NCBI GenBank assembly: GCA_030044325.1
Contig: JASHWA010000013.1
Span: 1 to 41,467, forward strand
DNA: 41,467 bases
Direction: 5' to 3'
Source of the DNA: Bryobacteraceae bacterium
Lineage (GTDB): Bacteria > Acidobacteriota > Terriglobia > Bryobacterales > Bryobacteraceae
Made by a program: the position numbers and the translations under genes. Below the pieces are notes generated by a model that saw only the letters and a list, made by a program, of their open reading frames with translations, did no database searches and was not told the DNA's origin. Numbering within the stretch: the stretch's first letter is position 1; each line of letters begins with the position of its first letter. Positions 3,749 to 24,179 of this stretch are shown piece after piece.

Positions 3749-4600
3749 CTACTCCCCGCCTTCCGGGCGACTCTCGAACCGCGTATAGTTGGCACGGAAC
3801 ATCAGCGGCACCCTGCCGATGGGACCGTGTTTTTGTTTGGCGATCAACAGGTCGGCCAATCCCTTCACCTCTTCGCGATCCGGCTCGTACCGCTCTTCCC
3901 GGTGGATGAAGGCGACCACATCCGCGGCCTGCTCGATCGATTCGGGGAGGTCGCTTAATTGCGGCTTATGATCCCGCTGGTGGGTTTCGGTCGCGCAGCT
4001 TGACTGCGATAGGACCAGAAACGGCACGCACAGATCGCGAGCCATGCGCTTTAACCCGCGTGAGAGCGTGCTCACTTCCTGATCGCTGGTGGCGTCACTA
4101 CCGTCCTCCAGCGGCTCCGATCCCATGAGTTGCAAGTAATCGACGATCACCAGATCAAGACCACGCCGGGAACGCAGCGCGAGTAGCTTTTCGCGCATGG
4201 TTGCCAGCGTCACCCCAGGGCCATCATCGATGAACAGCGGCATCTTGCGAATTTCGTGAAGGGCTCGCTCGACCCTCGCGCGCTCTTCACCGTCAACGGC
4301 GCCCATACGGTATTTCATGTTGTCCACACGGGCGCGATTGCAGAGGATACGATCTAGGAGGGATTCGCGCGCCATCTCGAGCCCGAACACGGCGACCGAC
4401 TTGCCACTGGCCGCTACATTGGCGGCGATCTGCATGGCCAAGGCGGTCTTGCCGGCTGAGGGCCAGCCCGCCAGTAGCCACATCTCGCCGCGGTGCAGGC
4501 CGTTCGTCATCTTCTGGAGGCACGGGAATCCAGCATCAAGCCCGGCATCCCGCGAGAAGACGGACGTGCTGTTTGTGAGTGCGTATTTCTTGGATTGCAT
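3749..4600 (-). CDS. DnaB-like helicase, C-terminal (RecA-type) domain only, with degenerate late motifs
   Basis: Walker A is LAGWPSAGKTALA and Walker B is DLVIVDYLQLM. LSQSS...KPQLSDLPESIEQAADVV replaces the canonical LSDLRESGSIEQDAD. AAGGA lies upstream of the ATG at 4600. Confidence 0.85.
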   Translation of the reverse strand: MQSKKYALTNSTSVFSRDAGLDAGFPCLQKMTNGLHRGEMWLLAGWPSAGKTALAMQIAANVAASGKSVAVFGLEMARESLLDRILCNRARVDNMKYRMGAVDGEERARVERALHEIRKMPLFIDDGPGVTLATMREKLLALRSRRGLDLVIVDYLQLMGSEPLEDGSDATSDQEVSTLSRGLKRMARDLCVPFLVLSQSSCATETHQRDHKPQLSDLPESIEQAADVVAFIHREERYEPDREEVKGLADLLIAKQKHGPIGRVPLMFRANYTRFESRPEGGE

Positions 4601-4896
4601 AAATTCCTTTTCTTCCGAAGCGGATCATGGTACTGCAGTGCCGGCGATGACCTTAGTGTTGCCGAAGTCCTCTGGTCCGCTTGCGGAAACTGATCTACAA
4701 CCGGCACATGTTGCGGCTTTGCGCAAAACGCGCATTTCAGCGCGAAAAACGAAACAGGGGTAGTCAGACTACCAGCCCAACGCCGTCGAGCGTTTCTAGC
4801 GCGAGAGAAGCCTGTTTCCCGCTGAGTCGCGGGGTTTTAAGAATAGCGGCGCGGCGCGGCGCTGCTCCAGCTCCTTCGTGCTTAACACACCCTTCC

Positions 4897-6237
4897 TTAC
4901 TGCTCAGTGATGCGACAGTATGGACCTTCCAGCCGAAGTCGCACCGAAGTACCACGCACGCCGTTGCGCTGTTTCCCGATGATCAGGTCCACGACATCCT
5001 TGTCGGCGTTGTCTGCCCTGTCCCGATTTCCCGGCGCGTCCAATAGGAGAACAGTATCGGCGTCCTGTTCGAGGCTGCCCGAATCCCGTAGATCGTTGAG
5101 CTGCGGCCGGCGAGATTCGTTCTCGTTGGCCCGGTTCAACTGGTGGGCGGCGACGATCGGAATGTTGTAATCGAGCGCCGCCAGCTTGAGCCTCCGCGAG
5201 ATAGCGCTCACTTCCTGGTTGCGGTTCTCAAACCTTCCACCGGGATCGACCAGGCCGAGATAATCCACGACCAGGAGGCCCAGGTTTGGAGTGGCCGCGA
5301 CTTTCCCGATAATCGTCGAGAGCGACCGCATCTTATCGCTTATTTCCAAGGGACAAGATCCGATCCGTTCGAGCGTGTCCGCAACCTTAGCGCGCCAGTC
5401 AGCCTGAAGATCGCCGCGGACCAGAACCGCGTGGGGAATGTCGCCTTCCGCGCTCAGTATCCTCTTTAATAGGTCTGCCTGCGGCATCTCCAGGCTGGCG
5501 AAGAGTACGCGGTGATTATTCTTGGCCGCGGCGAGTGCCCATTGCAGACACGCCGTGCTCTTGCCGACGCCGGTTCGCGCTCCGACCAGCCAAAGCTCGC
5601 CCGGCCGCAGGCCGCCGTTGGTTACATCATTGAGTCGTGCCCACGGGCTTGGAATGCAGCCGCGCGGAGCGGCCAGCAGGTTATCGATACCGATCGAAAA
5701 GACGGCGTTGCCAATCGTGGGCGCGTCCGTGGCGGTGGGGGCATCGAAGGTGCCCGCAATCATCCGCAGCTCGGCCTGGGTAGCGGCAAGTTGTTCGGCA
5801 GCATCGGCACCGGATTCAACGCCGAGCCGCAGCCGCTCCGAGGCTTTCCAGATGCGGCGTTCGGCAGCCTTGGATTTCAAATCGCGAACCCACTGCTCGG
5901 GATTCGAAACATCCACCATGTTGTCGAAGGCCAGTGAGGAGAGCTGTGGCAAGCCCAGGCCCTCCGACGAACTCCGTTCGTTGAGCACGTAGCGGTAGCA
6001 CTCGGAGAGGATGGGATCGCCGCCGGATTCGTGAATCCTGCGGGCGAGATTAAAGACACGCCGGTACGACTCGACGGCAAAGCAGTCATCGCTGAGCTGG
6101 GGACCGACGCGACGGAAGAAGCCCGGCTGGACAAGGATGTTTCCTATAATCAGCCTCTCGGCTTCTGCATTGATCAGGCGCTCGGGTCCGGCGTTTTCAG
6201 CGGAGCGCTTTCCCGCTGATTGCCGCGCGGTCTTCAT
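4897..6237 (-). CDS. dnaB: Replicative DNA helicase, DnaB family (full length)
   Basis: The N-terminal DnaB domain reads AERLIIGNILVQPGFF. Walker A is GARTGVGKSTACL, Walker B is LLVVDYLGLV, and the late motif is HQLNRANE...RPQLNDLRDSGSLEQDADTVLLL. I chose the start at ATG 6237 because it overlaps the TGA of the upstream gene (ATGA). The track ORF extends to 6282. Confidence 0.9.
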   Translation of the reverse strand: MKTARQSAGKRSAENAGPERLINAEAERLIIGNILVQPGFFRRVGPQLSDDCFAVESYRRVFNLARRIHESGGDPILSECYRYVLNERSSSEGLGLPQLSSLAFDNMVDVSNPEQWVRDLKSKAAERRIWKASERLRLGVESGADAAEQLAATQAELRMIAGTFDAPTATDAPTIGNAVFSIGIDNLLAAPRGCIPSPWARLNDVTNGGLRPGELWLVGARTGVGKSTACLQWALAAAKNNHRVLFASLEMPQADLLKRILSAEGDIPHAVLVRGDLQADWRAKVADTLERIGSCPLEISDKMRSLSTIIGKVAATPNLGLLVVDYLGLVDPGGRFENRNQEVSAISRRLKLAALDYNIPIVAAHQLNRANENESRRPQLNDLRDSGSLEQDADTVLLLDAPGNRDRADNADKDVVDLIIGKQRNGVRGTSVRLRLEGPYCRITEQ

Positions 6238-7127
6238 TGAACTGGCTCGCCCCGCACAAACTGCTCGGTAGCCGGGTCCCATTTCATGCCGGTCGCGACG
6301 GAGGGAGCCTGCTCTAGAGCTGGCTGCCCTCGCTGTGCATCTTCACGGAATACTGGCGGATGGTCCAAATAAAGACCGTCGGCGATGAACTTCTCCATGC
6401 TGGGGATGAAGCGTCCACCGTCTTCCCTGAGAGAGCGCTCCCATTGATCACAGGCGAGATGGCGCCGCAATCCCTCCATCAGCCGGTCATGCTCACCCTG
6501 TTTGCCGCTAATCCTAGAAACATACGCCCGGCATGAGGATTCCACCCTGACGTTCCGCTTACATTCCGGGTAGGCTTCCCTGAACTGATCCCACGGATTG
6601 AATTGGCGAGCGTCGCTTGAATCGCGCGCTCCTGTATCCGTTTCGAGATCTGTTTCTGTTTCGGATTCGGATTCGGGGCAGCAATCGGCCGCAGGTGGCG
6701 GCAACTCGCGGCCACTTGCGGTCACCTGTCCGCACTCTGCAGTCATCTGCCCGCACTCTGCGGTCAAGTGTCCGTCAACGGCGGTCGATTCCTTCCCAGA
6801 AGGCGGCGGATACTTACTCTTCATCCGCCTCAGCCGCTGGTGAAAGTTCCACAACTCGATGTAGGGTTTGCCGCTTACCTCGTACCGCCGGATCAATCCG
6901 GCTGTCTCGCAGGCGTCCAGATAAGTGCAGATATCCTGGACGGATACTGCGTCGATCATGAGCGGATACAGGGCGGCACGGAGTAGCGCCGGGAGACCAT
7001 CGTGGCGGCCATAGTCATCGACCACATTGAACAACCTCCGGTAGAAAACTTCGCATTTCGGATCGAGCGCGATCTTATTGACACGCTCGCTCGTGAGGAT
7101 CCCCTCACGAATGACTCTACTGGGCAC
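6234..7127 (-). CDS. Putative replication initiator / replisome-organizer-like protein
   Basis: GTG start at 7127 with AAGGA upstream. The N-terminus REGILTSERVNKIALDPKCEVFYRRLFNVVDDYGRHDG...YPL...AGLIRRYEVSGKPYIELWNFHQRLR resembles prophage replication and winged-helix proteins I recall. It is translationally coupled to dnaB. The central linker carries 7-aa repeats and an acidic ESESETETDLETD tract. Coding confidence is higher than function confidence. Confidence 0.6.
   Translation of the reverse strand: MPSRVIREGILTSERVNKIALDPKCEVFYRRLFNVVDDYGRHDGLPALLRAALYPLMIDAVSVQDICTYLDACETAGLIRRYEVSGKPYIELWNFHQRLRRMKSKYPPPSGKESTAVDGHLTAECGQMTAECGQVTASGRELPPPAADCCPESESETETDLETDTGARDSSDARQFNPWDQFREAYPECKRNVRVESSCRAYVSRISGKQGEHDRLMEGLRRHLACDQWERSLREDGGRFIPSMEKFIADGLYLDHPPVFREDAQRGQPALEQAPSVATGMKWDPATEQFVRGEPVQ
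6705..6788. repeat. Four tandem 21-bp repeats (iteron-like) inside the initiator-like gene
   Basis: The units are CTCGCGGCCACTTGCGGTCAC, CTGTCCGCACTCTGCAGTCAT, CTGCCCGCACTCTGCGGTCAA and GTGTCCGTCAACGGCGGTCGA. They encode the ECGQ(M/V)TA heptad repeats. GATTCG repeats and a T-rich stretch follow at about 6640-6680. Confidence 0.6.
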
Positions 7128-7856
7128 TGGGCCCGTCCTTTCTGCCCATCACCTAAACATCAAAGAACGGCGACCGGCGAAGCGCCGCAGCCGCCCGGGA
7201 TGGGGCAACACGCAAAAGTAAATTTTGGGATGGGTTACGAAACGAATCGATGCAGAGTGTATTGCCATGGCTCCTCAACTGCCGTGACCATCGATCGAAA
7301 AAGCAAGGTTCGTCCTACAGCGTCCGCAATGAGGTTAGGAATTTCTCAAACCGACGTGCGAGTTGTACACTACTCCGCTTGTGCGCGCGATTAATTAACT
7401 CGCGGTATCGCGGGCGGCGCGCTGCATCCAACATGCATCTGCCGCTCTGTGACTGCGAATTTCCCGGTATCACCGGTCCTCCTCGAAAGCTGCCGAAGGC
7501 GCCGTAAAATGCCCGGCGCCGTTCAGTTGGCGAGTCGATGGGTACAGTAATTCGGGGCGTGCGCCGACTGCCGACCACGCGGTGGTCGATCGCAAAAAGC
7601 AAGATCCGCATCGTGGCTGACAATGCGGGCCCGATTTTCATCGAGAGCTTTCGGCGACGGTTAAGCCGAAGATCTTGACTACGGAATGTGTCCACCGCGT
7701 GACAACGTGGACATGCGTGCCTGGCGTGCTTGGCGCAATGCGGCAAGGTCGGTATACGGGAACCGCTTGTGCGCTTGCCCGCGCGCGGCGACCCGCGGGC
7801 GCGGCACTGCGTAAGCGGCCAGTAACCGGCGAGCCCCGGTATCGGCGTAGTGCCTA

Positions 7857-8357
7857 TCAAACGGCAGAATCTGCCGTTTTAGTAGGCACCATGACTGACG
7901 CTTCTGATGCGACCTCCTCGGCTTTCTTCTTGTGTTTGGCCATGACAGCAAGAACTTCTTCTCGGGTAGGGCCTACAGGATCAGGATCTCCGGGGTGGTG
8001 CCGGTAGAGGCGCACTTGGTACAGCATCTGCTCGGTTTGCTGGTATGCATTCCATTCCGCGCTACCCTTGGCGAATAGCGGACGGGGAACCCTCGCGGCA
8101 AGCTTCTGCTCAACCTGCCGCCGCACCTCGGGTGCGACCTGCATTTCATCTAATCGCCAATCCACGCGCCGCCAGAAATACTCTTGGTGCGCAATCGCAT
8201 CGATGTGTTCCTCTCTGATGTGGGCCAGATGCGCCAACACCTTCTGCCGAATCTTGCCGTTGACACGATGGCTTTCCACCAGCACGGCATAGAAGGCGCG
8301 CCAGCTTCGCCGCCAGCTTTGGTGTCGTAGAACGCGGCTTTTCCAACGCACGAACAT
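7857..8357 (-). CDS. Hypothetical protein (166 aa)
   Basis: ATG at 8357 is preceded by GGAGG with about 8 nt spacing. The sequence MFVRWKSRVLRHQSW...AVLVESHRVNGKIRQKVLAHLAHIREEH...YFWRRVDWRLDEM recalls a recurrent uncharacterised family near mobile elements. The track ORF starting at 8561 is probably too long. Confidence 0.6.
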   Translation of the reverse strand: MFVRWKSRVLRHQSWRRSWRAFYAVLVESHRVNGKIRQKVLAHLAHIREEHIDAIAHQEYFWRRVDWRLDEMQVAPEVRRQVEQKLAARVPRPLFAKGSAEWNAYQQTEQMLYQVRLYRHHPGDPDPVGPTREEVLAVMAKHKKKAEEVASEASVMVPTKTADSAV

Positions 8358-8897
8358 GTCGATAACCTCCTTGTCCTTTCGTGTCCGTCGATCAGTATGA
8401 AAAGGCGCGCATCGCGACGAACGCGAAACGATGCACTGCCTTGCTGGGACGCAGCCGGACCATGGCTCCTGGGGATAGATAAGAAGAGCCACAGAATCCA
8501 GCAAAGTCAATACGGTTGAGCGAGTCGCAATCGAGTTCCGTGTCGAGCCCCGCAGGTGCATGGAAGCCCTGAGTGCCTTTTTGTGCGACCTCTTTGACCG
8601 TGGTCATGAGTCGCGCCGCATATGGGTCCGCGTGGCGCAACCGAAATTGAGCCGAAATCAAAGCGCAGACCAATCTGCCGAAGGTGTTGACAGGCAACAC
8701 CTGGACGGCGATAAGCGCAACGAGCGCCTCGTCAGGACGCCGGATGTTTCTATCCGCGCCGCGTTTCTGGTGTTCCCCGAGCCCATACCTCCCGTCCCCG
8801 CCTAAACATAAGAACTCAACCGCCGTATGAAGTTGCTGCGTTGCTTAATGAACTTTAATGTTTATGGCTCCGCCCGCAATCTACTTCGGGGTTATAC

Positions 8898-11800
8898 TTG
8901 ACACGCCACATAGCGCCGCTGCTCGCCATGTTCCGCCTACCTTTCGATTTCGATTATTCCGATGGTCCCGTCCGCCATCTCATCAGGCCGCTCCTTGATG
9001 GGCAGGCCATCGACGCCCCGATCGACCAAAAATTGCTTGAATCCATCATGAGCGTCCGTGCTGGCCCGACGTTCTGCATCCAGTGCTGGGGCCTTGGGCC
9101 GGGCACTGTGTTCTTGGAATGCCCAACGCGGGAACCGTCGGTCCCAGTCATGGATGTGCCTCGAGATAACGGGGACGGACCCGAAGAGATACTGCGCTGG
9201 CAGATGAGGCAGCTCCATCGACTCGGATATACAGGGCAGCAGCTCGAACGCGCGATCCATGATTTACTCCGTCCGCCGAAACATCCCGACGCGCAGAGCG
9301 GTCCCGTACTGCTCACTAGGGCCTATTTGACCGGATCGAGATGGAGTGACGAATGGTCCCCACAAACAAGAGTGCTGCCGCAGACCACTGCGAAACCCGA
9401 CAGGGCCACCATCATCTGGTTGCCGTGCTCTGACGGCACGCTCGAATGGAGAAGAACGGATACTTTTATTCGGCTCACCGGCGACGCCGCGCGAAAGCCA
9501 AGCGGCCCTTGTCAAAAAGATGGGTTTGAGCGCGCCCGCGAGGAGGCGCGAAAGGAACGGTCCGTTGTGGCCTCGAAGGACCTGCCTGTCGATGTTGATG
9601 GCTGGGATGAATTTGCACAGTATAGCTATGGTCGCGACATCCCAAAGCAGCTCCTTGATCCGTCGCTCGATGGGATGTTCGACGGCTACGACGCGCAACA
9701 CGGAGAACGATTCGGCCCAGAGTGGAAACGCAAACGACTGGCGTGGCGGAAATCCGCAGTAGTGGACTGCTCTCCGGGCACGACCACCTTCGGCAGCACG
9801 AGGCCGCTGTGCCCCACGAGCGTTCCCCTGAATCGAGGCCACCAACTGCCGGATGGACCCGCGTTTCATGCAATAGAGCGCGAGTTCCACACCAAGCTCA
9901 ATAATTTGCTGCTGGCGCTTGACCTGTATGGTTTCCCGGTTCGGGAGTCGCTCGGTTACTTACTACAGCGGCCCGACGAATTGTTCCGGGCATGGAGGTC
10001 TGCCTGGCGCAAAAAAAAGCGACGCATGCCGGAATTTGAGGAGCGCTGGAGGCAAGCGCCGCGGATTGGTCGCAAGCTAAACATCGAGGCTGAAACGAAC
10101 GCGCTGGCGCTCGCTGCCGCGAATCACTGCGATGAGAGGGTCGCGCTGGCGCTCGCCGGCACGACCGATTCACTGAACGGGGCTATCGATGCGTCCGTTG
10201 CGTTGATCGGTCTCGCGAGCGGCAGAGCCACAATCAACCGGACGCAGATTCAGATCGACTCCGAGCAGATGCTGATCCTCGCTGGCGGCGGGACGGCGGA
10301 CCTGAAGGTCCAGCGCGGCTATGCCGGGACCACCGCGGCAGCGCACTCAAGCGGCGCGACAGTGAAGGTCCCCGGCGGTGCTGAGGTGCCCCTGGGCGAC
10401 CGCGTCTATCTCTCGATGGATGAGATGGTCCGCGATCTCATCAAGATGACAACAGGACGCAAACCTGGGCCCCAGGCACGCGAACGGATAGCTTCCCGGG
10501 GCCGCGGGACGTCGTTAAGGGTACGGCCAGATGGCCGTCCATTGATCAGCGATGTTGCTCGTTTGGATAAACGACTCCGAGACGACCTTGCGCCTGTGTT
10601 GGAGGCGATCAGGCGCGATGCCTTCCTGCCCGACGGGGAAGTCCATTCCGTCCCGCATTGGCTATTCGATTTCGGCAAGCAAGTCCTGGCCTGTATTGGT
10701 CGGATCGACCTAGCCGCGCGCGCCAGAGTCGCGCCTTTCGATCCAAGGTATAAAAAGATCGCGGCAGCCGCCGAACGAAACCGAGTAGATCAGCCCACCG
10801 TAGAGGTGTGGCGTGACATGATCGACCGATGCACCGACCCAGAACACCCAGAATACGGGAACTACGGAGGACGCGGAGTAACGGTCTATCGGCCCTGGAT
10901 GGACCATTGCAACACCAGAAATTGGCGGATTTCTTTTGACCGGTTTACGGCCGACGTTGGGCCGCGACCTCAAACAAGTCCTACACTCACGCGCATAGCG
11001 GAAAATTACTTCTCCTTCCGACCCGCGAAGGTGGGCTACGAACTTGTCCGGCGAGACGAAAACGATAATTACGATCCATTGAACGTCAGATGGGCGCCGC
11101 CCGCGCCACCGGAAACCGCCGAATTGAATCAGAAATTGGCGGATGAAGATGCAGAAGCCTGGGCCCGTGATGGGGAGCATTGCCCCGACGTGAAGGGTCT
11201 TTTGCGGCTCGCGAAGTCCGTGGCGCGCAGCATCACGGCAACAAGACTCCGCGCGGAAATACGTTACAGGTTCGACAGGTTGGTTTCCGAAAGGCCAGCG
11301 TTTCGCGGCAGGGCCGAAAGCTGTACTGCTGTCCCGGTGGACCAGGAGCGAGCGATTACACTCACAGCGTCCGGCCGCGTCATGGCAAGGGCGGCTGGCG
11401 CTGTAATTAAGGAGAAGGGACCGGGTCTGTTGAAAGTATCCCGACCGCGCGGAATCGACGGAAGCGAACTGAAAGTAATCTTCACTCCGTCGTGGGTCGC
11501 GATAACGAATAACCAGATGTGGATCGGAGTGTACAACTCGCTGGGCGAGGGGAATGTTGTAAAGGTATTCCGGTCCCGCGAGGAGGCTCGTGATTTTGCC
11601 AAGAAGGGTTGGCGTAAGGGTGTCAGGAAAACAAAGGCAGCGAGAGACGTCGGCGATGACCCGAAGCAGCACCATCGAAAAAAGGGGATAGCCTTCCGCG
11701 ACGAGGACCTTGAGCAATATGCGTGTGAAGTGTATCTCAGCCAGGCGCGCACAAGAAACCTCCCTGAATACGCTCTTCGACGCTTGATGCGCGAGCGCCT

Positions 11801-14456
11801 GGGTGTTCAAGCGGTGTGGCGGACTAAGACGGGAGCCATAGACGATCCCGGTACGGTCGGCCTTCCTGCCTGGCTAAGCGAGCGGCTGACCCCGGAAGAA
11901 GAAGCGGCCGAGGCGGATATCAGGCCCTTATCCACGACCGACCCGCTTAATGGTTCGCCGAGACCGGTCCATGAACCCCCGACGTTCGCTCCTTGGCCCT
12001 ACGGCGCTACCACGGAGAAACAGAGAGACCGGGGCGGAGAGGACCACGGCGCGGAAGACGCCGAAGACGCCAAAGACCAAGACGGTGCGCACCCAGATCA
12101 CGAGCCAATAATTGATGTCGAGCTACTACTCACCAAGTTGACTGATCGTGAAAAACGAGTATTAGACCGCACCTTGTCAGGCTCCACACAAGAAGAAATC
12201 GGCAAGGAAATTGGCAGGGACCCAACCCGCGTAACAGCCGATCTCAACAGCATCACAGAGAAGTGCGACGATCTGTCGGTCCAGCGGGTTCATGCCTGCT
12301 TCAGCATTGATCCCGATGGATCGGTCGTAGAGGTTCTTGATCCGAATGGATCGGGCGTGGAGTTTCCCGCCTATGCGCCAGTCGCGCTGATTCCCCTGTT
12401 TTTCGAGACAGCGGACTCCCCTCCAAAGCGCATACCGTATCCGCCCGAAGACCTAGCCCGCATCGATGCACTTCGCGAGCGCTGCGGGGAACGACATCGC
12501 GATGAAAACTTATGGCGCAAGCTGCTGAGGAGCCTTGATCGTGAGTGGACAACCCGCATACTTTCCGTGGCCGAGGTGGCCGCCGAAGACGCGCTTGCTC
12601 CTGATTGGATGCTGCTGGCGAGGATTGCTCCCGAGGATTTATGGCATAAAATACTCACCGTGCTTCAGCCGTGGCGTGATGATCCGCGCTGCGATGCTCG
12701 GAAACTTTCTGTCTTGGCCTCGGTGATGCGCAAGGCCGCCGGGGAAGCGGCGCCAGCCAGCAAGACTGACGAGACAGCGATCCCTCTTGGCGCAACGGAA
12801 GAAGAGAAGAAAGAGATAACCCATCGGGCATCGAACGACCGCCTCCATGCAGCATTATTTCGGCAGTCGATTCTGGCCGCCGGCCCGCAGAGGCGCGACG
12901 TCCGCCCGCCGATTGATCGACATGAATGTCCGAGCGGTCCAGCGGGATCAACCCGGCCGTGTACACCCGCGGCTAGCCCGTCTGCCCTCGCGCAATGCGG
13001 GCGATCCACGCTGCCCCGGAATCCGGCGAGGTTTGAACCAGAGCGCACACCCGCCCCATACGTGAGCCGATCAGCGGCGCGAGAGGCGCGATTCGGCAAG
13101 GACGTTCCGCAAATTGAATCCAGCCACATGGAGTTTGAACGCGCTCCGCTGGCGCTGTACCCACTACAGCCCGCGCCATACATGTTCGCGAGGTTCGCGC
13201 CCTATATGTTCGTGAGATGCGCACCCTACATGGGGTCCTTCTGTTCATGGACCGCTTGGGACAAACAGTGGAACGGGAGAAAGCCCAAGAAGGGTGTGTC
13301 CCTGTATCCAATTGCCCAGCCCAAGCCGGGCGAACAAGGATTCTGGTTAAGCCACTTTCCGCCAGACGGCCGTGACGTCGTCTGCTTCTCCGATGCTCTA
13401 AAACATCATGCGTACAGGCTTAAGCACAGTGAGTTTCCATCAGACAGCAAGCTGCTTCAGGACCTCGTGGATCGTCGCCCGCGGTGGGTGTGTACGGGCC
13501 AACCTGATAGTTGTCTCGAAGACCGGCACGGCCCCTGGTTTCCAGCCCCCCTTCCTGGGCGAGATCGCAAGCCGATCTTCAGCGCCCGAAGGCGACTTTG
13601 GAAAGCGCTCGTCCGCTGCATTACAGTAGCGGAGCAATTTAACCGCTCATATTATCCGTGGCTATTTCATCAGGGGCAGAAGGTGTCCTCGACATGGCCT
13701 TTCAGTGGGGAGCCCAGAGCCAAAGAACGCAAGCGGAAGCGCAAGCGCGCTATTCCGCGGCCCGACCCAAGGGCGCTCCGGCCGCTGGTTCGTGTCTGCG
13801 AAGCGCCAAAGAAAGGCTACGCCATAGAGCCCATAGGCGACGACTGGGTGGTATTTTACCCAGGCGGAAATCGTGCAACCTTTCTGAGCAGACCAGATGC
13901 CATCGAGTTTAGCCGGAACCTGACTCCAAGCAAGGAGGCGGAAACGGGGCGGTTGGTGTGGGCTGCGAAATCCGAATCCTTGATCGGCGGTACTTGTCAA
14001 GCATACGGATTCTCCACCGAAGCGGCGGCTCGCGAATGGGCCGCCGCGCCAAAATATCGGAGCGGGTACAGGGCTGATCCTGAAGCCGAAGAACGCGATA
14101 AATGGATCGCGAAGCTCACTGCCTACAAGGCCTCCTATGCTGCTTACGCCAACCTTGCCGAAGGTGATCCCGGTGCCGAACGCGCCTATGCTGACGCCTA
14201 TCACGCCTTCAGGGAATACGCCCGCATCGATCTTGAGATTCATCAAGTCAAGCATCACAAGCCGAGCAAAATCCCGCGGTGGGCGGACGGCGACGAGAGG
14301 CATCGCAGGGGCCGCGACCCGTTTCCTTTGGTTGAACCCACCTTCGCGGCGCACAAGGAGTGGTGGAAGTCGTCAAACATGCTCGCAGGCGCGGAGGCAC
14401 GCCGGAGGGCACATCTCACCCCATCGGATAATTGGCTGTTTTTCATGCCCAGGTAG
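8898..14456 (+). CDS. Giant orphan ORF (1852 codons from TTG 8898; first ATG at 8928) with embedded DNA-binding-like modules and no recognisable enzymatic motif
   Basis: 5.5 kb in one frame without a stop. At about 10800-11105, VEVWRDMIDRCTDPEHPEYGNYGGRGVTVYRPW...FDRFTADVGPRP...LVRRDENDNYDPLNVRWAP matches the W..M..RC...Y..YGGRGI.V...W..F..F..DmGprP...DR.d..g.Y.P.N.RWA module seen in phage HNH/NUMOD-like DNA-binding proteins. At about 12118-12270, LLTKLTDREKRVLDRTLSGSTQEEIGKEIGRDPTRVTADLNSI looks like a sigma-70 region 4 / LuxR-type HTH. I found no Walker A motif. Confidence 0.6.
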   Translation: MTRHIAPLLAMFRLPFDFDYSDGPVRHLIRPLLDGQAIDAPIDQKLLESIMSVRAGPTFCIQCWGLGPGTVFLECPTREPSVPVMDVPRDNGDGPEEILRWQMRQLHRLGYTGQQLERAIHDLLRPPKHPDAQSGPVLLTRAYLTGSRWSDEWSPQTRVLPQTTAKPDRATIIWLPCSDGTLEWRRTDTFIRLTGDAARKPSGPCQKDGFERAREEARKERSVVASKDLPVDVDGWDEFAQYSYGRDIPKQLLDPSLDGMFDGYDAQHGERFGPEWKRKRLAWRKSAVVDCSPGTTTFGSTRPLCPTSVPLNRGHQLPDGPAFHAIEREFHTKLNNLLLALDLYGFPVRESLGYLLQRPDELFRAWRSAWRKKKRRMPEFEERWRQAPRIGRKLNIEAETNALALAAANHCDERVALALAGTTDSLNGAIDASVALIGLASGRATINRTQIQIDSEQMLILAGGGTADLKVQRGYAGTTAAAHSSGATVKVPGGAEVPLGDRVYLSMDEMVRDLIKMTTGRKPGPQARERIASRGRGTSLRVRPDGRPLISDVARLDKRLRDDLAPVLEAIRRDAFLPDGEVHSVPHWLFDFGKQVLACIGRIDLAARARVAPFDPRYKKIAAAAERNRVDQPTVEVWRDMIDRCTDPEHPEYGNYGGRGVTVYRPWMDHCNTRNWRISFDRFTADVGPRPQTSPTLTRIAENYFSFRPAKVGYELVRRDENDNYDPLNVRWAPPAPPETAELNQKLADEDAEAWARDGEHCPDVKGLLRLAKSVARSITATRLRAEIRYRFDRLVSERPAFRGRAESCTAVPVDQERAITLTASGRVMARAAGAVIKEKGPGLLKVSRPRGIDGSELKVIFTPSWVAITNNQMWIGVYNSLGEGNVVKVFRSREEARDFAKKGWRKGVRKTKAARDVGDDPKQHHRKKGIAFRDEDLEQYACEVYLSQARTRNLPEYALRRLMRERLGVQAVWRTKTGAIDDPGTVGLPAWLSERLTPEEEAAEADIRPLSTTDPLNGSPRPVHEPPTFAPWPYGATTEKQRDRGGEDHGAEDAEDAKDQDGAHPDHEPIIDVELLLTKLTDREKRVLDRTLSGSTQEEIGKEIGRDPTRVTADLNSITEKCDDLSVQRVHACFSIDPDGSVVEVLDPNGSGVEFPAYAPVALIPLFFETADSPPKRIPYPPEDLARIDALRERCGERHRDENLWRKLLRSLDREWTTRILSVAEVAAEDALAPDWMLLARIAPEDLWHKILTVLQPWRDDPRCDARKLSVLASVMRKAAGEAAPASKTDETAIPLGATEEEKKEITHRASNDRLHAALFRQSILAAGPQRRDVRPPIDRHECPSGPAGSTRPCTPAASPSALAQCGRSTLPRNPARFEPERTPAPYVSRSAAREARFGKDVPQIESSHMEFERAPLALYPLQPAPYMFARFAPYMFVRCAPYMGSFCSWTAWDKQWNGRKPKKGVSLYPIAQPKPGEQGFWLSHFPPDGRDVVCFSDALKHHAYRLKHSEFPSDSKLLQDLVDRRPRWVCTGQPDSCLEDRHGPWFPAPLPGRDRKPIFSARRRLWKALVRCITVAEQFNRSYYPWLFHQGQKVSSTWPFSGEPRAKERKRKRKRAIPRPDPRALRPLVRVCEAPKKGYAIEPIGDDWVVFYPGGNRATFLSRPDAIEFSRNLTPSKEAETGRLVWAAKSESLIGGTCQAYGFSTEAAAREWAAAPKYRSGYRADPEAEERDKWIAKLTAYKASYAAYANLAEGDPGAERAYADAYHAFREYARIDLEIHQVKHHKPSKIPRWADGDERHRRGRDPFPLVEPTFAAHKEWWKSSNMLAGAEARRRAHLTPSDNWLFFMPR
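13172..13234. repeat. Three tandem imperfect repeats GCGCC(A/C)TA(C/T)ATGTTCG(C/T)GAG inside the giant ORF
   Basis: GCGCCATACATGTTCGCGAGGTTC, GCGCCCTATATGTTCGTGAGAT and GCGCACCCTACATGGGG. These translate as APYMFARF, APYMFVRC and APYMGSF. Each unit contains the ACATGT palindrome or a near variant. Confidence 0.55.
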
Positions 14457-14893
14457 CCGGGATTCCGAATCTTAGCAGTTCACGCCGTTAGCGTCGTCCC
14501 GCCACTTCGCTACGATGCCTTCGAGATCGTGCTCGCAGGCCCGGCGGAACAGGGCGCGGCCGTCCCGATCGAAGTGGTGGGCCAGCAGAATGCGCGGATG
14601 GTCGCGGACAACACGCTTCAGGATCTCCTTCCGGTTCATCAGCGGCAGCGCCCGCAGATCGTGGCCGCCATGCATGAGGCAGTCGAAGGCGTAGAATACC
14701 GGCTCGCCTCGGCGCCGCAGCAGCTCGTAGAACTGCGGCCTGCCGCTCGCGTCGAGCACAACAATCTCGCCATCGAGGACCGCCTCACGGTTCAGCGACC
14801 GGAGCGATTCCCGAAGCACGGCGAAACTCTTGTACGGATTGCCACGCCGGGAAATGAGCCGCACGTCGGCTCCGGTCACGATCCAGTTTTACT
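14453..14893 (-). pseudogene. ATP-dependent DNA ligase (LigD-type ligase domain) remnant A, lacking both the N-terminus and the C-terminus
   Basis: ADVRLISRRGNPYKSF...EAVLDGEIVVLDASGRPQFYELLRRRGEPVFYAFDCLMHGGHDLRALPLMNRKEILKRVV...LEGIVAKWRDD. There is no KxDG adenylation motif, and stop codons sit just upstream (S*E*NWIVTG). After a frameshift the reading continues as KIRNPGY down to 14453. Confidence 0.7.
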
Positions 14894-15104
14894 CTCAGCT
14901 AGCGAACGTTATTGTGGTGGTCAGGTTCCCGTTTGGCATACGAAGGCTCATCGTAAACTGGCGCACCGTGCACGTCTACCGGACTGACTCGGTCTCTTCT
15001 TCCGGCGTCGGGCGCACTGTCGAGTCTTTTTTCCACAAGAGGCAACGACGCGCGTAATCCTTTTACTACTTTTGATCGACAAAATCGGGAGGAGGGGAAG
15101 GCAG

Positions 15105-17297
15105 ATGACTCGACTCTGGATCCTGGCTGCGATGTGCTCAGTTGGCCTTGCGGCGAGCAGCAGCATCGTCGTGCCTAATGCGAGCGCGACGACCGCCGGA
15201 AATGACAACTCCGGCCTTCCCGCGGACTATTTTTTTTACATCCGGTCTCAAACTGTAGTCGACCCGGATCAGTTCAGCTCGATTACCGGCCCGGTTTACA
15301 TCACCGGGATGGCATTTCGAGCCGCGCCGGGAATGGGCTCGCTAAACCTGGAGGCGAGCGGGAGCATTTCTCTCTCTACCAGCCTCACTTACGCGAACAC
15401 AACCGGGCATCCGGGCCTGAGCCTCACGTTTGCGAACAACGTAGGACCAGATAACACGCTGGTGTTTTCGGGTAGCGCGGCGCTCACCGGGCCCGGGTGC
15501 GCTGGACCGGCTCCGTGCCCCTTCGGGCCTCCCGTCGCCTTCACCGCGCCGTTTCTCTATAATCCCGCCAACGGTCCGCTTTTGTTCGACATGACGGACA
15601 CCTTTATTGGCGTGACCAGCGGACAAATCGACATTCAGGACTGTAATCCCGCAAGCTGTTCCGTTTCTGGCATCGACTCTACTACTCCCGGAGCGGCCGC
15701 GGCGCCACAAGTCAATGCGAGCGGAACCATTATGGAGATCTTTTATGTACCCGCGGCGCAATCGACGACCAACGTCACACTCAATCTGACCTTCAGCTCC
15801 ATTGGCGCCACGGTGCTCAACCAGATGAACGCCGTCGAAAGCGGCTCGGCCGGCTCGCTCGGCAACGCGACCTTGTACATCACCAGCTCTCAACCGAAAA
15901 GCAGTGGCGCGTTGCAAGGGCCTGTCCAAGTCACCGCGCAGCTCTTTTTCGATCAGCTCGACAGCATCACGGCGAGCTTTACCGAAAGCAACGTGAACTT
16001 CGCCGCCTCGCCGCCCTTCACTATCTCCGGAGGAACGATCACCGGAGGAACCGGCATGTACGGCGGCGCGAGCGGATCGCTGAGTCTTACTTTCAATCAA
16101 AACGCAAACGGCGTCTACACCACCACAGGTTCCGGAAGCGTGACGGTCAATGGGACGACCACGCAACTAACGCTTTCGAATTTCGCCGGGTCGTCGATCG
16201 CCAATGCGCAGGAGTACTACAGTGGTGGAACCGCGACTGGCACGGCGAGCCCGCTCGGAAGCGCGAGCGCAACCCTCAAAATCGACAACGCCAATACACC
16301 GCCCGAGCCTTCAATCGGCGTCCTGACCGTAAGGCCGAACGCGACCGACAGCTTCAATATTTACTTCTCGGTTTCCGGCTTGACTTCGGGCGGCCCGAGC
16401 TTTCCCGCTACAGTCACCGGCGGCACGGGAGCCTACGCTGGTGCGACCGGCTCATTCATGCTGGCGCTTGGTGGCAACAGCACTTCAGGCTATACGATCC
16501 AGGGCACCGGGACGCTGACCAGCGCCGCGAGCGGCGTGCCGATCATCACTTCCGTGAAGACTGCGTTCGGCGCGCCCGTTGTCGCATACAACACCTGGCT
16601 CCAGATCAACGGGATCAATCTCGCACCGTCCAGCACCGCATCGGCCGGAGTCGTGTGGAGCAACGCGTCGAGCTTCGCCCAAAACATGATGCCATCGCAG
16701 CTTGGGCCGATCAGCGTCACGGTTGATGGACTTCCCGCGTATATTTTCTTCTATTGCAGCGCCTCGACCGATCCGGCCTGCACGGCGGGCGACCAGATCA
16801 ATGTGCTGGCGCCACTCGATACCAACAATGTCCCGTACCCGGTGGAAGTCGTCGTAACCAACAATGGCGTTGCGAGCGCGCCGTTCACGGTCTTGAACAA
16901 CGGCCTTTCACCGACCTTCCCGCTCTACGACGCGACTGGCCACGTGGTCGCGCGGCACCTGAACTACAATCTTCTCGGACCCGCGAGTCTGTTCCCCGGG
17001 TCATCCACGCCAGCCACTCCGGGTGAAGAGATCATCCTGGTGCTCTACGGGCTCGGTCCGCCGAGCGGAACCGCACCGACCGCCGGGTCGGCAACCCAAA
17101 GCGGCTCGATGCCCAGCCCCATCCAGTGCTGGATTTCGGGGCAACCGGCGAGCGTGGTGGGGTTCGATTTGATCAGCCCGGGACTCTACCAACTGAACAT
17201 CACCGTTCCGGCTTCCACGCCCGCAGGTGACAACCCGATCGCATGCAACTACAACGGCTACCCGACCTTCCCTGGCGCGTTGATTAATGTTCAATAG
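15105..17297 (+). CDS. Secreted Thr/Ser/Gly-rich protein with a Solibacter-type C-terminal domain (TIGR03437-like, IPT/TIG-like)
   Basis: ATG at 15105 follows GGGAGGAGGGG. The signal peptide is MTRLWILAAMCSVGLAASSSIVVPNASA. The C-terminus reads WLQINGINLAP...VTVDGLPAYIFFY...QINVLAP...VVTNNGVASAPFTV...EIILVLYGLGP...LISPGLYQLNITVPASTPAGDNPI. Confidence 0.8.
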   Translation: MTRLWILAAMCSVGLAASSSIVVPNASATTAGNDNSGLPADYFFYIRSQTVVDPDQFSSITGPVYITGMAFRAAPGMGSLNLEASGSISLSTSLTYANTTGHPGLSLTFANNVGPDNTLVFSGSAALTGPGCAGPAPCPFGPPVAFTAPFLYNPANGPLLFDMTDTFIGVTSGQIDIQDCNPASCSVSGIDSTTPGAAAAPQVNASGTIMEIFYVPAAQSTTNVTLNLTFSSIGATVLNQMNAVESGSAGSLGNATLYITSSQPKSSGALQGPVQVTAQLFFDQLDSITASFTESNVNFAASPPFTISGGTITGGTGMYGGASGSLSLTFNQNANGVYTTTGSGSVTVNGTTTQLTLSNFAGSSIANAQEYYSGGTATGTASPLGSASATLKIDNANTPPEPSIGVLTVRPNATDSFNIYFSVSGLTSGGPSFPATVTGGTGAYAGATGSFMLALGGNSTSGYTIQGTGTLTSAASGVPIITSVKTAFGAPVVAYNTWLQINGINLAPSSTASAGVVWSNASSFAQNMMPSQLGPISVTVDGLPAYIFFYCSASTDPACTAGDQINVLAPLDTNNVPYPVEVVVTNNGVASAPFTVLNNGLSPTFPLYDATGHVVARHLNYNLLGPASLFPGSSTPATPGEEIILVLYGLGPPSGTAPTAGSATQSGSMPSPIQCWISGQPASVVGFDLISPGLYQLNITVPASTPAGDNPIACNYNGYPTFPGALINVQ

Positions 17298-17623
17298 CGC
17301 GCCACGAGTCCGTTTCGAAAGCCATTCCAGCGGCCATTTCAAGTGATCGGACCATACCGAGCGCGCCGATATAACGAAGGCATCCGGCGCCTGCGTGTGG
17401 ACAATGAATATGAATTGGCCGCGCCGAAGAAGCGCCGGAAGCACGACTGGGCGGAAGGGCGAACTCGCAGCGGTGCGCATCGGGCCGCAGTATCCCGATC
17501 GCCTGATCGGGCACGTTCAACGCCCTGCTGCCGCGGCGCCACCGCAGCCACCAGCGATCATCTCCACCGCGGCGCCGCTCCCCCGCACTTGCGGTGAGGA
17601 AGAAGCGCCGCGGCCCGAGCGAA

Positions 17624-18037
17624 TCACGACGGCTTTGCGAGATACCAGACGAACCACATGAACTCGCGTGGATCGTGCCCGCGCGCTTCCCAGCGCTCGA
17701 TGCGGCCGGGAAATGCCTTTCGGCCCTCCTCGATCAGATCGAGCGGGGTGACGAACCTGTCGAAATGTTCGAGCGCCAGGCGCGCGCATTCGTTCACGTA
17801 ATCGTCCCGCGGGAGATCCGCCGGCGCCCAACGCGTCGGATCGACTTCGATCCAGTACACCTCAGCGGTTCCGTCCGGAAGCCGGAACTGAAGCTGCCCG
17901 CCGATATTCACCAGGTTCAGCGCGCGCCCAGCCTCGATCACGCACGGAATGTCCTCGACGCGCCAAGCGTACTCGTTGCCGTTCAGATTTGCGCGTTGGA
18001 GTATCTCGGCGGGCAGCAGCTCGATAGGGTCCTTCAT
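17624..18037 (-). CDS. Hypothetical protein (137 aa), possibly an immunity-protein-like alpha/beta fold
   Basis: A clean ORF with protein-like composition: NEYAWRVEDIPCVIEAGRALNLVNIGGQLQFRLPDGTAEVYWIEVD. The immunity-like resemblance is a weak impression only. Confidence 0.6.
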   Translation of the reverse strand: MKDPIELLPAEILQRANLNGNEYAWRVEDIPCVIEAGRALNLVNIGGQLQFRLPDGTAEVYWIEVDPTRWAPADLPRDDYVNECARLALEHFDRFVTPLDLIEEGRKAFPGRIERWEARGHDPREFMWFVWYLAKPS

Positions 18038-18104
18038 GAGCGGATACTATGATAACGATGGCGGTTTCTTTTATATCTGAGCACGGTGATATGCTGCGAA
18101 TCAG

Positions 18105-18509
18105 ATGCCAACCGAACATATCGTAGCTTTGCTCATCGCCGAACGTGATCGCTTGTCTCGCGCGATCGATGCCCTACACCCACCATCGCGTCGCCGCGGT
18201 CGACGGCCAGCAAAGGCCACAAACGCCGCTCCTGCTACTGCGGGGCCACCCAGGAAACGCAGGCTCACTGCCGCCGGACGAAGGGCGATCGCAGCGGCAG
18301 CGAGGCGCAGATGGACCGCGATTGAAGCTGCCAAAGCTCCCCAGGCTCCCGCCGTTGCTTCGGCCGCAAAGCCCACGCCGAAAAAACGCCGGATCAGCGC
18401 TGCTGCACGCAAGGCGATGGGGGATGCCGCGAGGCGGCGGTGGGCTGCGGCCAAAGCCGCGAAGTCGGCACCGGCGGCCAAGAAAGGGGCGGGAACCAAA
18501 GCGGCATAG
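18105..18509 (+). CDS. Small basic Ala/Lys/Arg-rich protein; the only intact full-length member of the dispersed family (copy A)
   Basis: MPTEHIVALLIAERDRLSRAIDAL followed by two internal repeats, KRRLTAAGRRAIAAAARRRWTAIEAAKA and KKRRISAAARKAMGDAARRRWAAAKAAKS, ending AAKKGAGTKAA*. The upstream sequence TTTCTTTTATATCTGAGCACGGTGATATGCT is shared with copy B. Confidence 0.55.
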   Translation: MPTEHIVALLIAERDRLSRAIDALHPPSRRRGRRPAKATNAAPATAGPPRKRRLTAAGRRAIAAAARRRWTAIEAAKAPQAPAVASAAKPTPKKRRISAAARKAMGDAARRRWAAAKAAKSAPAAKKGAGTKAA

Positions 18510-18519
18510 CACAAGCGCC

Positions 18520-18955
18520 GATGCGATAGGACGCTGTCCCGTATTCCTCGAAATGGATCGCGACGGCGCCCTCGTCCATGTTCGACGTTGACCCGCCGGT
18601 GAACACCGTCCCATGGGCCGTCGTCAAAACAAATTCGCGATGACTCTTGGAGCTTTTTAGAAGACGAAGTTCATAGCGTGACAGCGGGTCAATAGGCGCC
18701 CGACCGCGCACAACGAACCGCGCATCAGACGGTACACGCACGGGGGAGCGGTCGGATTTTATTTCCGTTGTCATCTTCACAGAAGCGTATCCGGGCAGGG
18801 CCTTCGTCTTGGCGTGGAATGTGACCGTCTCGCGTTCCAGCTCGATCAGTTTCCGCCGGGATCGAGCGCGGCGAAACCATTGATGTATTGAGGCTCCGTG
18901 ACGCTTTGTGCGGAGATGATCGCTCCGATCACAAGCAGCAATGTGATGCGTTTCA
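18520..18955 (-). pseudogene. Small secreted protein gene with a 1-nt frameshift (or a sequencing indel) at an A-run near 18850
   Basis: The signal-peptide ORF MKRITLLLVIGAIISAQSVTEPQYINGFAALDPGGN* (18955 down to 18846) continues in another frame as KLIELERETVTFHAKTKALPGYASVKMTTEIKSDRSPVRVPSDARFVVRG...EGAVAIHFEEYGTASYRI. The second frame has no stop until 18394, inside repeat copy A. Confidence 0.4.
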
Positions 18956-18987
18956 TATACCGTCCTCGCTTGATCATTTTGGCACGA

Positions 18988-19290
18988 CTGCCAACGACAT
19001 GGCCGGCAACCTCGCACCGGCCAGCCGAAGGAACGTGCAAGAAGCCCAACAACAGCGCTACTGGTCGAAAGGCGATCGCAGAAGCCGCTCGCTGGCGCTG
19101 GGCCGCTGTTAACGGCCAGCAAGGCGGCTCCAGAATTATCGAACTCGCCGGCCGCAACGAAGACCGCCCCGCAAGTGCAAACGAGTCGCAGAAAAACGCC
19201 TGGCACTCCTGCGTCCAAACGCCGCTTCCTGCTCGCAGTCGGGGCGGCGTTTTTGCGTCGCGACTCAGGTGCAACGGCCAGCAATTGCCT
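18988..19290 (+). repeat. Degenerate copy D of the small basic gene family
   Basis: ACTGCCAACGACAT resembles the family start ATGCCAACCGAACA. KKPNNSATGRKAIAEAARWRWAAV is in frame, and the second repeat unit is recognisable only across frames. Confidence 0.5.
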
Positions 19291-19354
19291 GGTTCGAGCC
19301 TCTAATCCATCACGTGGCGCCGCAAAACGCGCGAATGATACTAAGGACCGGTCT

Positions 19355-21991: not shown

Positions 21992-21994
21992 CGT

Positions 21995-22588
21995 TTATGG
22001 GCTCCGGCGTGTCATTTCCCGCTTCAGCCACGCCCGCGCAAGCGACCACTCGCGCTTGACTGTGGCCACGGAGATCCCCATCGCTTCGGCGATTTCTTCG
22101 TTTCCCAGACCGCCGTAAAACCGCAGCTCGACCAGTCTCGCCTGCCTCGCATCGAGCTTCTCCAGCCGGTCGAGCGCTTCCTCGAGATCGATGATTCCGG
22201 CCAGATCATCGTTAAAACCCGCGACCGCCTGATCGCCGGCCTCTCCTTCGTCGAGCGGCAATTTCGGCTGTTCGCCTCCGCGCTTGGCGGCATGATGCGC
22301 GCGTGCGTGATCCACCAGAATCTGGCGCATGAGCCGCGCCGCGACGCCGATGAAATGCGCGCGGTCCTGCCACTTCGCTTCCGGCTGATCGACCATCCGC
22401 AGGTACGCTTCGTTGACCAGCGCGGTAGCCTGAAGCGTATGATTCGCGCGCTCCCGTCCCAAATAGCGCCCGGCCAGGCGGCGAAGTTCGGTATACAGGA
22501 GCGGAACCAGCCGCTCAGCCGCGATCTGATCGCCGGCGCGCAATTCTGCGATGAGCGCGGTGACTTCCCCGCGCGGAATCGGTTCCAC
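21995..22588 (-). CDS. ECF RNA polymerase sigma factor (TIGR02999-type, the kinase-associated ECF group)
   Basis: EVTALIAELRAGDQIAAERLVPLLYTELRRLAGRYLGRERANHTLQATALVNEAYLRMV...WQDRAHFIGVAARLMRQILVDHARA, plus region 4 VELRFYGGLGNEEIAEAMGISVATVKREW. The stop is 3 nt from the kinase ATG. Confidence 0.9.
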   Translation of the reverse strand: MEPIPRGEVTALIAELRAGDQIAAERLVPLLYTELRRLAGRYLGRERANHTLQATALVNEAYLRMVDQPEAKWQDRAHFIGVAARLMRQILVDHARAHHAAKRGGEQPKLPLDEGEAGDQAVAGFNDDLAGIIDLEEALDRLEKLDARQARLVELRFYGGLGNEEIAEAMGISVATVKREWSLARAWLKREMTRRSP

Positions 22589-22614
22589 GGCGTTATTGTA
22601 TATCCGCTCATCCG

Positions 22615-22866
22615 CTACGTCCTAGCTGACGCCGGCTTTGCACCGTCGGGATGAACGCGACCTGGCTTCGTTCCACTAGATTTCTTGCCGCCGCGCGGCG
22701 CCGCCGGGCCGATCGGTTTTTGCACCGGACGGAGGGGGTTCCACACGCCGCTCCGGTTGATTCCGGAACCACGTGGCGACATCCCCCGCATCGGGAAACG
22801 GGATTGCGCCGAGGCCGCACCCGCCAGGCCGAGCGCCAGGATCGACAAAAGAATGCTTCGCATCAT
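22615..22866 (-). CDS. Possible small secreted Pro/Gly/Arg-rich protein upstream of the sigma-kinase pair
   Basis: The signal peptide MMRSILLSILALGLAGAASAQ is convincing, but the rest is low complexity. The ORF ends 26 nt upstream of the sigma gene. Confidence 0.4.
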   Translation of the reverse strand: MMRSILLSILALGLAGAASAQSRFPMRGMSPRGSGINRSGVWNPLRPVQKPIGPAAPRGGKKSSGTKPGRVHPDGAKPASART

Positions 22867-23507
22867 GTTCGTTTTTCCTTTCTTTTCGGGAGCTTTTCAC
22901 TCTCCGTTCTTGAATGCGGAACGCGCAGGAAAAACGGCTCACGAACAATTTTTCGAACTACCGAAGAGCATTGATTAACACAACCAGAACGATGCCTCGG
23001 ACAAAGAACAAGCCGCCGGGCGCAACCAGGCTGTTGTCCGCCTCCGCCACAAGCTTCCGAATGGGACATTCTAATAATGGTGCAGGACGACCCGACGCTC
23101 CCCACGCGCCGCCCCCAACACGCTCACGGTCGCTTCGTGAACCCATGGCTACAGAGTCATGTTGCACCGCTCCGTGATGGGCGATGGTACGGAATCGAGC
23201 ACCTTCTGCTTCAACCGCTCCCACTGCGCGGGCTTTTCCACTACGGCTAAATCGTTCATTTTGCGTCCTTTTAATGGGCATTAACGGCAACCTGAACCTT
23301 ACCTCTGATGTGCGGACACATCAAGCAGAATTGCCAAAAGGTTGGTCTCGCTTCCCATCCGTTCACGTGGGAAGAAGAGGTGTTCGCGCGCGATCCGCGC
23401 CATCGGTGCGTCCGAAATTCAAGGATACCGTCCGATGGCTCGGGATAGTGAAACGATCGGCAGAGTTTCAGCACTGTGTCATTGAAGTCGTCTGAAGGGA
23501 GTACATC

Positions 23508-24110: not shown

Positions 24111-24179
24111 CAAGGAGCGTTAAACGACGGCAAGGGCTGGAGAGAGGAGGATCTGATCCCTCGAGGCCTCTCTAGAATG

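Follow-up and report, generated by a model that had tools for sequence, protein, structure and literature searches.

The window analysed here, a complete metagenome contig of 41,467 nt from a Bryobacteraceae bacterium (JASHWA010000013.1), contains a 5.5-kb reading frame that is very probably one genuine protein-coding gene. Judged by its sequence, its product, hereafter the giant protein, is a 779-amino-acid (aa) scaffold like that of its sole relative, P0005, enlarged by four in-frame lineage-specific segments to 1842 residues (2.4-fold), and the two would form an undescribed protein family with two known members. We tentatively suggest that the giant protein may be a sequence-specific DNA-binding transcription regulator, possibly sigma-like, encoded by what appears to be an integrative mobile element in a probably acidobacterial, Solibacter-like chromosome. 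An earlier note, made from the DNA letters without database searches, had described the frame as an orphan carried as cargo by such an element.

The frame (8898..14456, plus strand) is by far the longest open reading frame (ORF) of the window and translates from a TTG into 1852 aa without a stop, as the earlier note had claimed. The local base composition gives a stop frequency of 0.033 per codon, about one in 30 codons, and the probability of 1852 open codons is about 1e-27; each of the other five frames has 30-71 stops over 8898-14456. The G+C content at the three codon positions (GC1/GC2/GC3) is 0.64/0.51/0.64 and is coding-like in 17 of 18 blocks of 300 nt, the single exception being 12798-13097 with GC2 of 0.65. 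All profile matches lie in the ORF frame; Pfam and PHROG matched no ORF of the other five frames. When codon usage is scored in 240-nt windows after training on the contig's other genes, the ORF frame ranks first in 41 of 45 windows and is clearly outscored by another frame at 12858-13097 alone, where its own score is -12 to -13. The absolute score of the ORF is 2.6 per 80 codons versus 11.0 +/- 6.1 for the training genes, which is no evidence against coding, because the P0005 gene (-1.1) and the neighbouring replication initiator gene (3.7) also score low. The score is strong from aa 1681 to the C-terminal end and strongest in a beta-barrel segment described below. The aromatic-rich composition that the earlier note reported holds for tryptophan (2.5% of the product) and not otherwise. 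Three features describe the gene itself:

8928..14456, plus strand: giant gene, 1842 codons plus stop, likely start ATG 8928, maximal ORF from TTG 8898
12798..13157, plus strand: stretch without coding signal by GC2 and codon score, aa ~1301-1420, rich in Pro, Arg, Ala and Ser
13172..13232, plus strand: in-frame tandem repeat, period 24 nt, 2.5 copies, protein APYMFARF/APYMFVRC/APYM, Tandem Repeats Finder score 80

The ATG at 8928 (1842 aa) is a more likely start than the TTG at 8898 because of the N-terminal match to P0005, whose N-terminus MFDFRLPPEFDSSNGP aligns to MFRLPFDFDYSDGP; the database gene call (P0001) also begins there. The 120 codons of the stretch without coding signal would stay open by chance with p of about 0.017, and the stretch may code for a disordered linker or may simply have remained open. 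It ends in the 24-nt repeat, a related copy of which lies at 13051-13064. The repeat motif occurs nowhere else in the window, its pattern being derived from these same copies and hence no independent test. These repeats may be a peptide linker repeat or a cis-acting site (iteron or operator). A second in-frame tandem repeat lies inside the ORF at 12307-12366 with a period of 30 nt, and both periods are multiples of three.

An exhaustive phmmer search of 1.84 billion representative proteins with aa 740-1852 as the query returned one distant relative, P0005 (779 aa, E 2e-9), the only one known among ~15 billion proteins, so that the frame is strictly no orphan but nearly one. By BLASTP and by Smith-Waterman z-scores against shuffles, five blocks are collinear between the two proteins, the first beginning at residue 12 and the last ending at residue 1717 of the giant protein, and four segments of the latter (aa 37-243, 416-563, 630-935 and 1130-1687) show no similarity to P0005 (z <= 0.5). 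The search for a full-length homolog, which the earlier note had proposed as a check, yielded one that is collinear from start to end. The blocks and two of the segments are as follows:

8931..9005, plus strand: conserved block 1, aa 12-36 = P0005 aa 4-28, z 10.9, MF(D)FRLP..FD.S.GP motif
9006..9626, plus strand: lineage-specific segment 1, aa 37-243, no P0005 counterpart (z -0.1), no family match, weakly positive codon score
9627..10142, plus strand: conserved block 2, aa 244-415 = P0005 aa 47-223, z 11.7
10587..10784, plus strand: conserved block 3, aa 564-629 = P0005 aa 216-281, z 16.5, HS.P.WLF.F ... P.DPR motif
11703..12284, plus strand: conserved block 4, aa 936-1129 = P0005 aa 351-502, z 21, possible sigma2-like helix pair, acidic linker and helix-turn-helix (HTH)
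12285..13958, plus strand: lineage-specific segment 4, aa 1130-1687, unlike P0005 aa 503-738 (z -1.0), no family match
13959..14048, plus strand: conserved block 5, aa 1688-1717 (WAAKSESLIGGTCQAYGFSTEAAAREWAAA) = P0005 C-terminus aa 739-768, 57% identity over 30 aa, z 13.3, GGTC.A.GF.T..AAR.W unit

The shared scaffold would consist of blocks 1-3 as its N-terminal region, a sigma-factor-like module in the centre and a short conserved unit at the C-terminus. The module would be composed of two helices that resemble ECF sigma region 2.3/2.4, an acidic linker and a sigma4/LuxR-type HTH. Because the giant protein corresponds at its beginning, in its middle and at its end to the product of a single 779-aa gene, we read it as one gene grown by in-frame gain and not as a chance fusion. 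The added segments hold a beta-barrel and a YGGRG module, both absent from P0005, as well as some 900 residues in which no fold is recognisable. The three DUF2188-like units that the earlier note had seen as a repeat did not hold up: self-BLAST of the giant protein found no internal protein repeat and Pfam gave no match, the third unit being conserved in P0005. Word-indexed protein searches with the whole giant protein, its aa 11-620 and P0005 returned the query alone, together with proteins carrying repeats of the beta domain for the first two queries. An exact-sequence look-up of the giant protein found no record, and a DNA comparison with plasmids and phages gave no match. Viral, genome and metagenome contigs scanned by pattern, with the protein and with the two-sequence alignment, yielded the P0005 contig again and no new member.

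P0005 is encoded on contigs from four metagenome samples (JGI 3300021170 and 3300050821, ENA ERZ27253768 and Logan SRR7097862) and is labelled 'RNA polymerase sigma factor (sigma-70 family)' at JGI. Its gene with 3 kb on each side is identical DNA in three of the samples, and the fourth carries the same protein. The surrounding element is:

L001 ~3968-20240 (also L002, L003): P0005 element, ~15 kb, integrative

Its gene order is a DUF3489 gene, a 100-aa gene, P0005, a 66-aa gene, a 152-aa HTH gene, an HK97 capsid gene, a prohead protease gene, three further genes and a tyrosine integrase gene. Terminase, portal and tail genes were not detectable in it, and it may be a capsid-forming, phage-satellite-like element. 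P0005 stands directly upstream of the small HTH gene, the capsid gene and the protease gene, a place in which late-gene activators are often found and which would fit a regulator. Two proteins are common to the window and the P0005 element: a DUF3489 protein at 53% identity and a basic protein of 95 aa at 52%. Since these two genes are shared, the giant gene seems to belong to the backbone of a small integrative-element family, and the idea that it is cargo found no support. The surroundings of the two genes differ, with a capsid and protease operon in the one case and a replication module and a ligase remnant in the other. Relatives of the DUF3489 gene also occur on six IMG/VR viral contigs (L005-L010), none of which carries a P0005-like gene at the DUF3489-anchored locus. 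The small basic proteins (MPTEQIVALLIAERDRLSRAI ... AAGRKAIAAAARRRW) form a family with about 50% identity that is encoded three times in the window, at 18105-18509, ~27959-28147 and ~39926-40105, all on the plus strand, and once in L001 at 6538-6825 on the minus strand; the family has no family match.

Three domains were recognised in the giant protein, each at a place where the earlier note had suspected one:

10158..10397, plus strand: beta-barrel domain, aa 421-500, motif IQIDSEQMLILAGGG..VQRGYAGTTAAAHSSGATV, within lineage-specific segment 2 (aa 416-563)
10755..11102, plus strand: YGGRG module, aa 620-735, opening lineage-specific segment 3 (aa 630-935)
12111..12269, plus strand: sigma-70 region 4 / LuxR-GerE type HTH, aa ~1072-1124, by Pfam, PHROG and TIGR02937

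The HTH, preceded by an acidic tract (aa 1046-1070), is confirmed at clan level: in the giant protein it matches PHROG sigma-factor families (E 6e-5), TIGR02937 (E 1e-4) and, at E of about 0.1, Pfam GerE and Sigma70_r4. In P0005 the matches are to GerE (1e-4), Sigma70_r4_2 (2e-4), sigma4 Pfam models (21.2-21.5 bits) and TIGR02937 (E 1.7e-9), the last over profile positions 55-162 of 165, which comprise region 2.3/2.4, the linker and region 4. A two-sequence HTH profile matches StyR, SigF, DesR and other LuxR- and sigma-type chains in the PDB. The AlphaFold2 (AF2) model of the P0005 HTH has a predicted local distance difference test score (pLDDT) of 95 and matches region 4 of SigC, SigD and SigE in Foldseek with probability 1.0, and NarL and GerE equally well.

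The YGGRG module (aa 620-735) is matched by four PHROG 'HNH endonuclease / restriction endonuclease' families (3377, 374, 8790 and 2081; E 1.4e-16 to 2e-12), at accessory profile positions only, e.g., 7-74 of 196. By tblastn it occurs in 616 phage records, with hosts that include Staphylococcus, Pseudomonas and Mycobacterium, and a literature search on the motif found no relevant paper. The module is probably an accessory DNA-binding-type domain of these phage families, of which Mycobacterium phage Quasimodo gp148 is an example, and the giant protein would have borrowed it from them. The giant protein differs from them in having the accessory module only, within a far larger unrelated protein, and neither Pfam nor the PHROG matches, which fall only on the accessory part, reveal the HNH (beta-beta-alpha-Me) catalytic core.

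The beta-barrel is a unit of ~70 aa found in three unrelated proteins, with 12 copies in P0002, 5 in P0003 and 2 in P0004, and it does recall, as had been proposed, a small domain of phage structural proteins. In the PDB its profile matches the chain of the phage JBD30 baseplate that entry 8rk3 names 'Tip attachment protein J' (E 0.002), and its AF2 model (pLDDT 77) matches that chain, the Vibrio phage VP1 capsid and many predicted tail fibres of BFVD in Foldseek (TM ~0.68, probability 1.0). Direct tblastn of the domain against phage genomes gave no match. Long tandem arrays span aa 556-1483 of P0002 and aa 319-663 of P0003, proteins with Tad, VWA or TIG domains, and the two copies of P0004, which has no Pfam domain on record, lie within its aa 21-255; the unit follows the pattern I.iDsEqM.Vt...l.V.R...GT.A..H..Ga.V, which Pfam models did not detect in the giant ORF.

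The earlier note had seen no catalytic signature, and here too a motif scan (Walker A, DEAD, GIY-YIG, KxDG and S-adenosylmethionine-binding motifs) and searches of Pfam, PHROGs, NCBIfam, PADLOC and the PDB found no catalytic domain. A known family such as primase-helicase, named there as a check, was not matched either; primase-helicase, nuclease, methylase and LAL (large ATP-binding LuxR) regulator were rejected as identities, with no motifs or matches. What stands of the earlier description is a giant multi-module protein, apparently of a mobile element, with at least two modules of predicted DNA-binding type and no recognisable catalytic part.

The function that we propose is drawn from one small domain; the HTH is the sole conserved part with a recognisable fold. 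From the domain types we infer DNA binding: the HTH, aided in the giant protein by the YGGRG module, would bind specific sites on the element DNA, and the protein would then switch element genes on or off as a classical activator or repressor. Alternatively, and speculatively, the giant protein would recruit the host RNA polymerase core if its sigma2-like part is real. The HTH matches those of the LuxR/GerE regulators GerE, NarL, FixJ and StyR about as well as sigma4, and these regulators, which include LAL/MalT-type proteins, resemble the giant protein also in large size. They differ in that the HTH of the giant protein is central and not C-terminal, and no Walker A/NTPase, receiver or other partner domain was found in it, whereas these regulators usually have a receiver, autoinducer or NTPase domain at the N-terminus. 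The likeness to group 4, i.e., extracytoplasmic function (ECF), sigma-70 factors lies in the tetrahelical sigma4-type HTH following a flexible acidic linker. The conserved (D/E)(E/D)(F/L)xQxAC...RRxMR(D/E)RL also resembles, by eye, what we take to be the ECF pattern D..VQE.F...WL.RIA.N..ID; the sigma2 part is putative. Extra domains fused to an ECF core are known (ECF41/42-type, ECF121; PMC7826278), and C-terminal extensions occur in 19 ECF groups, N-terminal ones being rarer and generally shorter (PMC7826278). With about 935 residues before the module and about 720 after it, such a core in the giant protein would fall outside this described range.

Several observations weigh against the regulator reading and its sigma variant. 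No match reaches a curated family cutoff: Sigma70_r4 scores 12.1 bits in the giant protein (cutoff 24.1), TIGR02937 22 bits over profile positions 86-161 in the giant protein and 37.5 bits in P0005 (cutoff 42.9), and GerE (PF00196) 12.9 and 22.4 bits, respectively (cutoff 23.5). Sigma70_r2 or Sigma70_ECF matches are absent both from the giant protein (E<=1) and from P0005 (E<=0.05). PDB profile searches with the putative sigma2 stretch found no sigma factor, and in PDB sequence searches the whole giant protein, P0005, and the sigma2 stretch and its profile retrieved nothing or the HTH alone. The hhalign alignment into sigma2, made against ECF sequences, reached a probability of only 52%. The AF2 model of P0005 is unconfident outside the HTH (overall pLDDT 47, shallow alignment), and its Foldseek matches apply to the HTH only. 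About 75% of the giant protein is without a recognisable domain, and the coding signal is weak or absent (codon score near zero or negative) over aa ~1281-1640. The giant protein has no close relatives, and the three P0005 loci are identical in DNA. Unlike at the P0005 locus, no capsid or packaging operon follows the giant gene, the next feature being the ligase remnant on the other strand. We consider it quite improbable that the giant protein is a true sigma factor. An equally doubtful extension is that both proteins represent a new sigma architecture of integrative or satellite-like elements of soil Acidobacteria, with an ECF-like sigma2-linker-sigma4 core placed in the middle of proteins of 780-1840 residues. 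The giant protein would add to this core a second DNA-binding module, a virion-type beta-barrel and possibly cis-acting iteron-like repeats (13051-13232) within its own linker-coding stretch.

The gene neighbourhood in the window is listed below, from left to right:

2-604, minus strand: integrase N-terminal fragment, cut by the contig end
1110-1784, plus strand: fusion of a DUF3489-like N-terminal and a DUF2924 C-terminal part
3749-4600, minus strand: DnaB-like gene, C-terminal ATPase domain only
4897-6237, minus strand: DnaB helicase
6234-7127, minus strand: 'replication initiation protein' by PHROG
14472-14879, minus strand: ATP-dependent DNA ligase remnant, 135 aa, adenylation-domain profile positions 39-186 only, 15 nt from the giant stop
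15072-17297, plus strand: 741-aa protein with TIGR03437 (Solibacter-specific C-terminal domain, 91 bits)
19355-38560: host-like array, PF07638 ECF sigma factor and four Ser/Thr kinase paralogs, TPR repeats detected in three

Two further genes without assignment lie to the left of the giant gene, and the replication module, consisting of the two DnaB-like genes and the initiator, is divergent from it. The TIGR03437 protein and the array beyond it suggest that the host is probably an acidobacterium of the Solibacter/Bryobacter type. The ligase remnant lacks the motif-I end and the OB domain, has stops upstream, and may mark a rearrangement or an element boundary. A continuation of the ligase on the minus strand beneath the 3' end of the ORF was rejected (stops; ORFs of other frames without matches). 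The window contains no Rfam RNA family and no tRNA, promoter and terminator scans gave nothing above shuffles, and no iterons were found near the replication initiator gene.

Two other explanations deserve weighing, each unlikely in our judgement. The first is a DNA-binding protein with a non-transcriptional role in the element, such as recognition of a replication origin or packaging site, partition, or delivery together with the DNA as a polyvalent-like or virion-associated protein. The HTH and the YGGRG module would then serve to recognise the DNA of the element, and contacts with virion or other proteins would fall to the beta-barrel, a domain typical of baseplates, capsid decoration and tail fibres. 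The position of the giant gene, divergent from an initiator and two DnaB-like helicase genes, fits such a role, as do the capsid genes adjoining P0005 and the iteron-like 24-nt repeats, which recall the lambda ori inside gene O. Polyvalent proteins, which phages, plasmids or conjugative elements encode and deliver with their DNA, combine several domains of disparate, largely enzymatic activity in one polypeptide, among them domains that bind nucleic acids and structural domains of virions (Iyer et al. 2017, PMC5512222). Like them, the giant protein is of great size, belongs to a mobile element and combines domains of the latter two kinds, but no typical enzymatic or anti-defence domain was found in it: the earlier note's comparison with polyvalent proteins failed in searches of four profile libraries and the PDB. 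Terminase, portal and primase signatures were not found either. Moreover, the beta-barrel and the YGGRG module are missing from P0005 and so are not core to the function of the family, whereas the conserved core holds a sigma4/LuxR HTH, mostly a transcription-factor domain in known systems.

The second explanation, to which we give about the same low weight, is a partly degenerate gene, in which the scaffold was inflated by non-functional in-frame insertions or duplications, or in which function was lost recently, before stops arose. Much of aa 37-243, 740-935 and especially 1281-1640 would then be junk or disordered spacer. The codon score of <= 0 over the last of these regions, with its sharp minimum and raised GC2, agrees with this, as does the hydrophobic-poor, Pro/Arg/Ala/Ser-rich composition of the low-signal stretch. 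No homolog of the lineage-specific segments was found among the 1.84 billion representatives (query aa 740-1852), the gene is on record from one contig only, and its surroundings appear to be decaying, with the ligase remnant cut at both ends and one DnaB-like gene reduced to its C-terminal part. On the other hand, the 558 codons of segment 4 would stay open by chance with p of only about 6e-9, and the frame rejoins the C-terminal block in phase. Well-formed domains lie in two of the extra segments, which have the highest profile and codon scores within the ORF, and the bona fide homolog gene is equally poor in codon score. That the frame is not one gene but smaller genes fused by chance or by chimeric metagenome assembly, or a shadow of genes on the other strand, might be suggested by the single contig, by long antisense ORFs (e.g., 10710-11810, minus strand, 366 aa) and by the loss of coding signal at 12858-13097, and it is extremely improbable given the chance of ~1e-27 for the open frame, the alternative-frame ORFs without Pfam or PHROG match and the collinear match to a single 779-aa protein across residues 12-1717.

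The frame examined here is a real gene, neither a polyvalent effector nor a primase-helicase, and P0005 provides a concrete partner sequence for it. Sigma4/LuxR-HTH regulators of mobile elements would be of an already known kind; what appears to be new is the undescribed architecture. If the regulator or sigma reading is true, the size and layout of the giant protein would be without precedent among transcription factors of mobile elements. The gene would then also illustrate cleanly how length can more than double through in-frame accretion of a phage virion beta-barrel, an HNH-accessory module and long unstructured segments. Our results suggest that soil bacteria harbour a small family of integrative elements that is so far unstudied and includes a capsid-encoding member.

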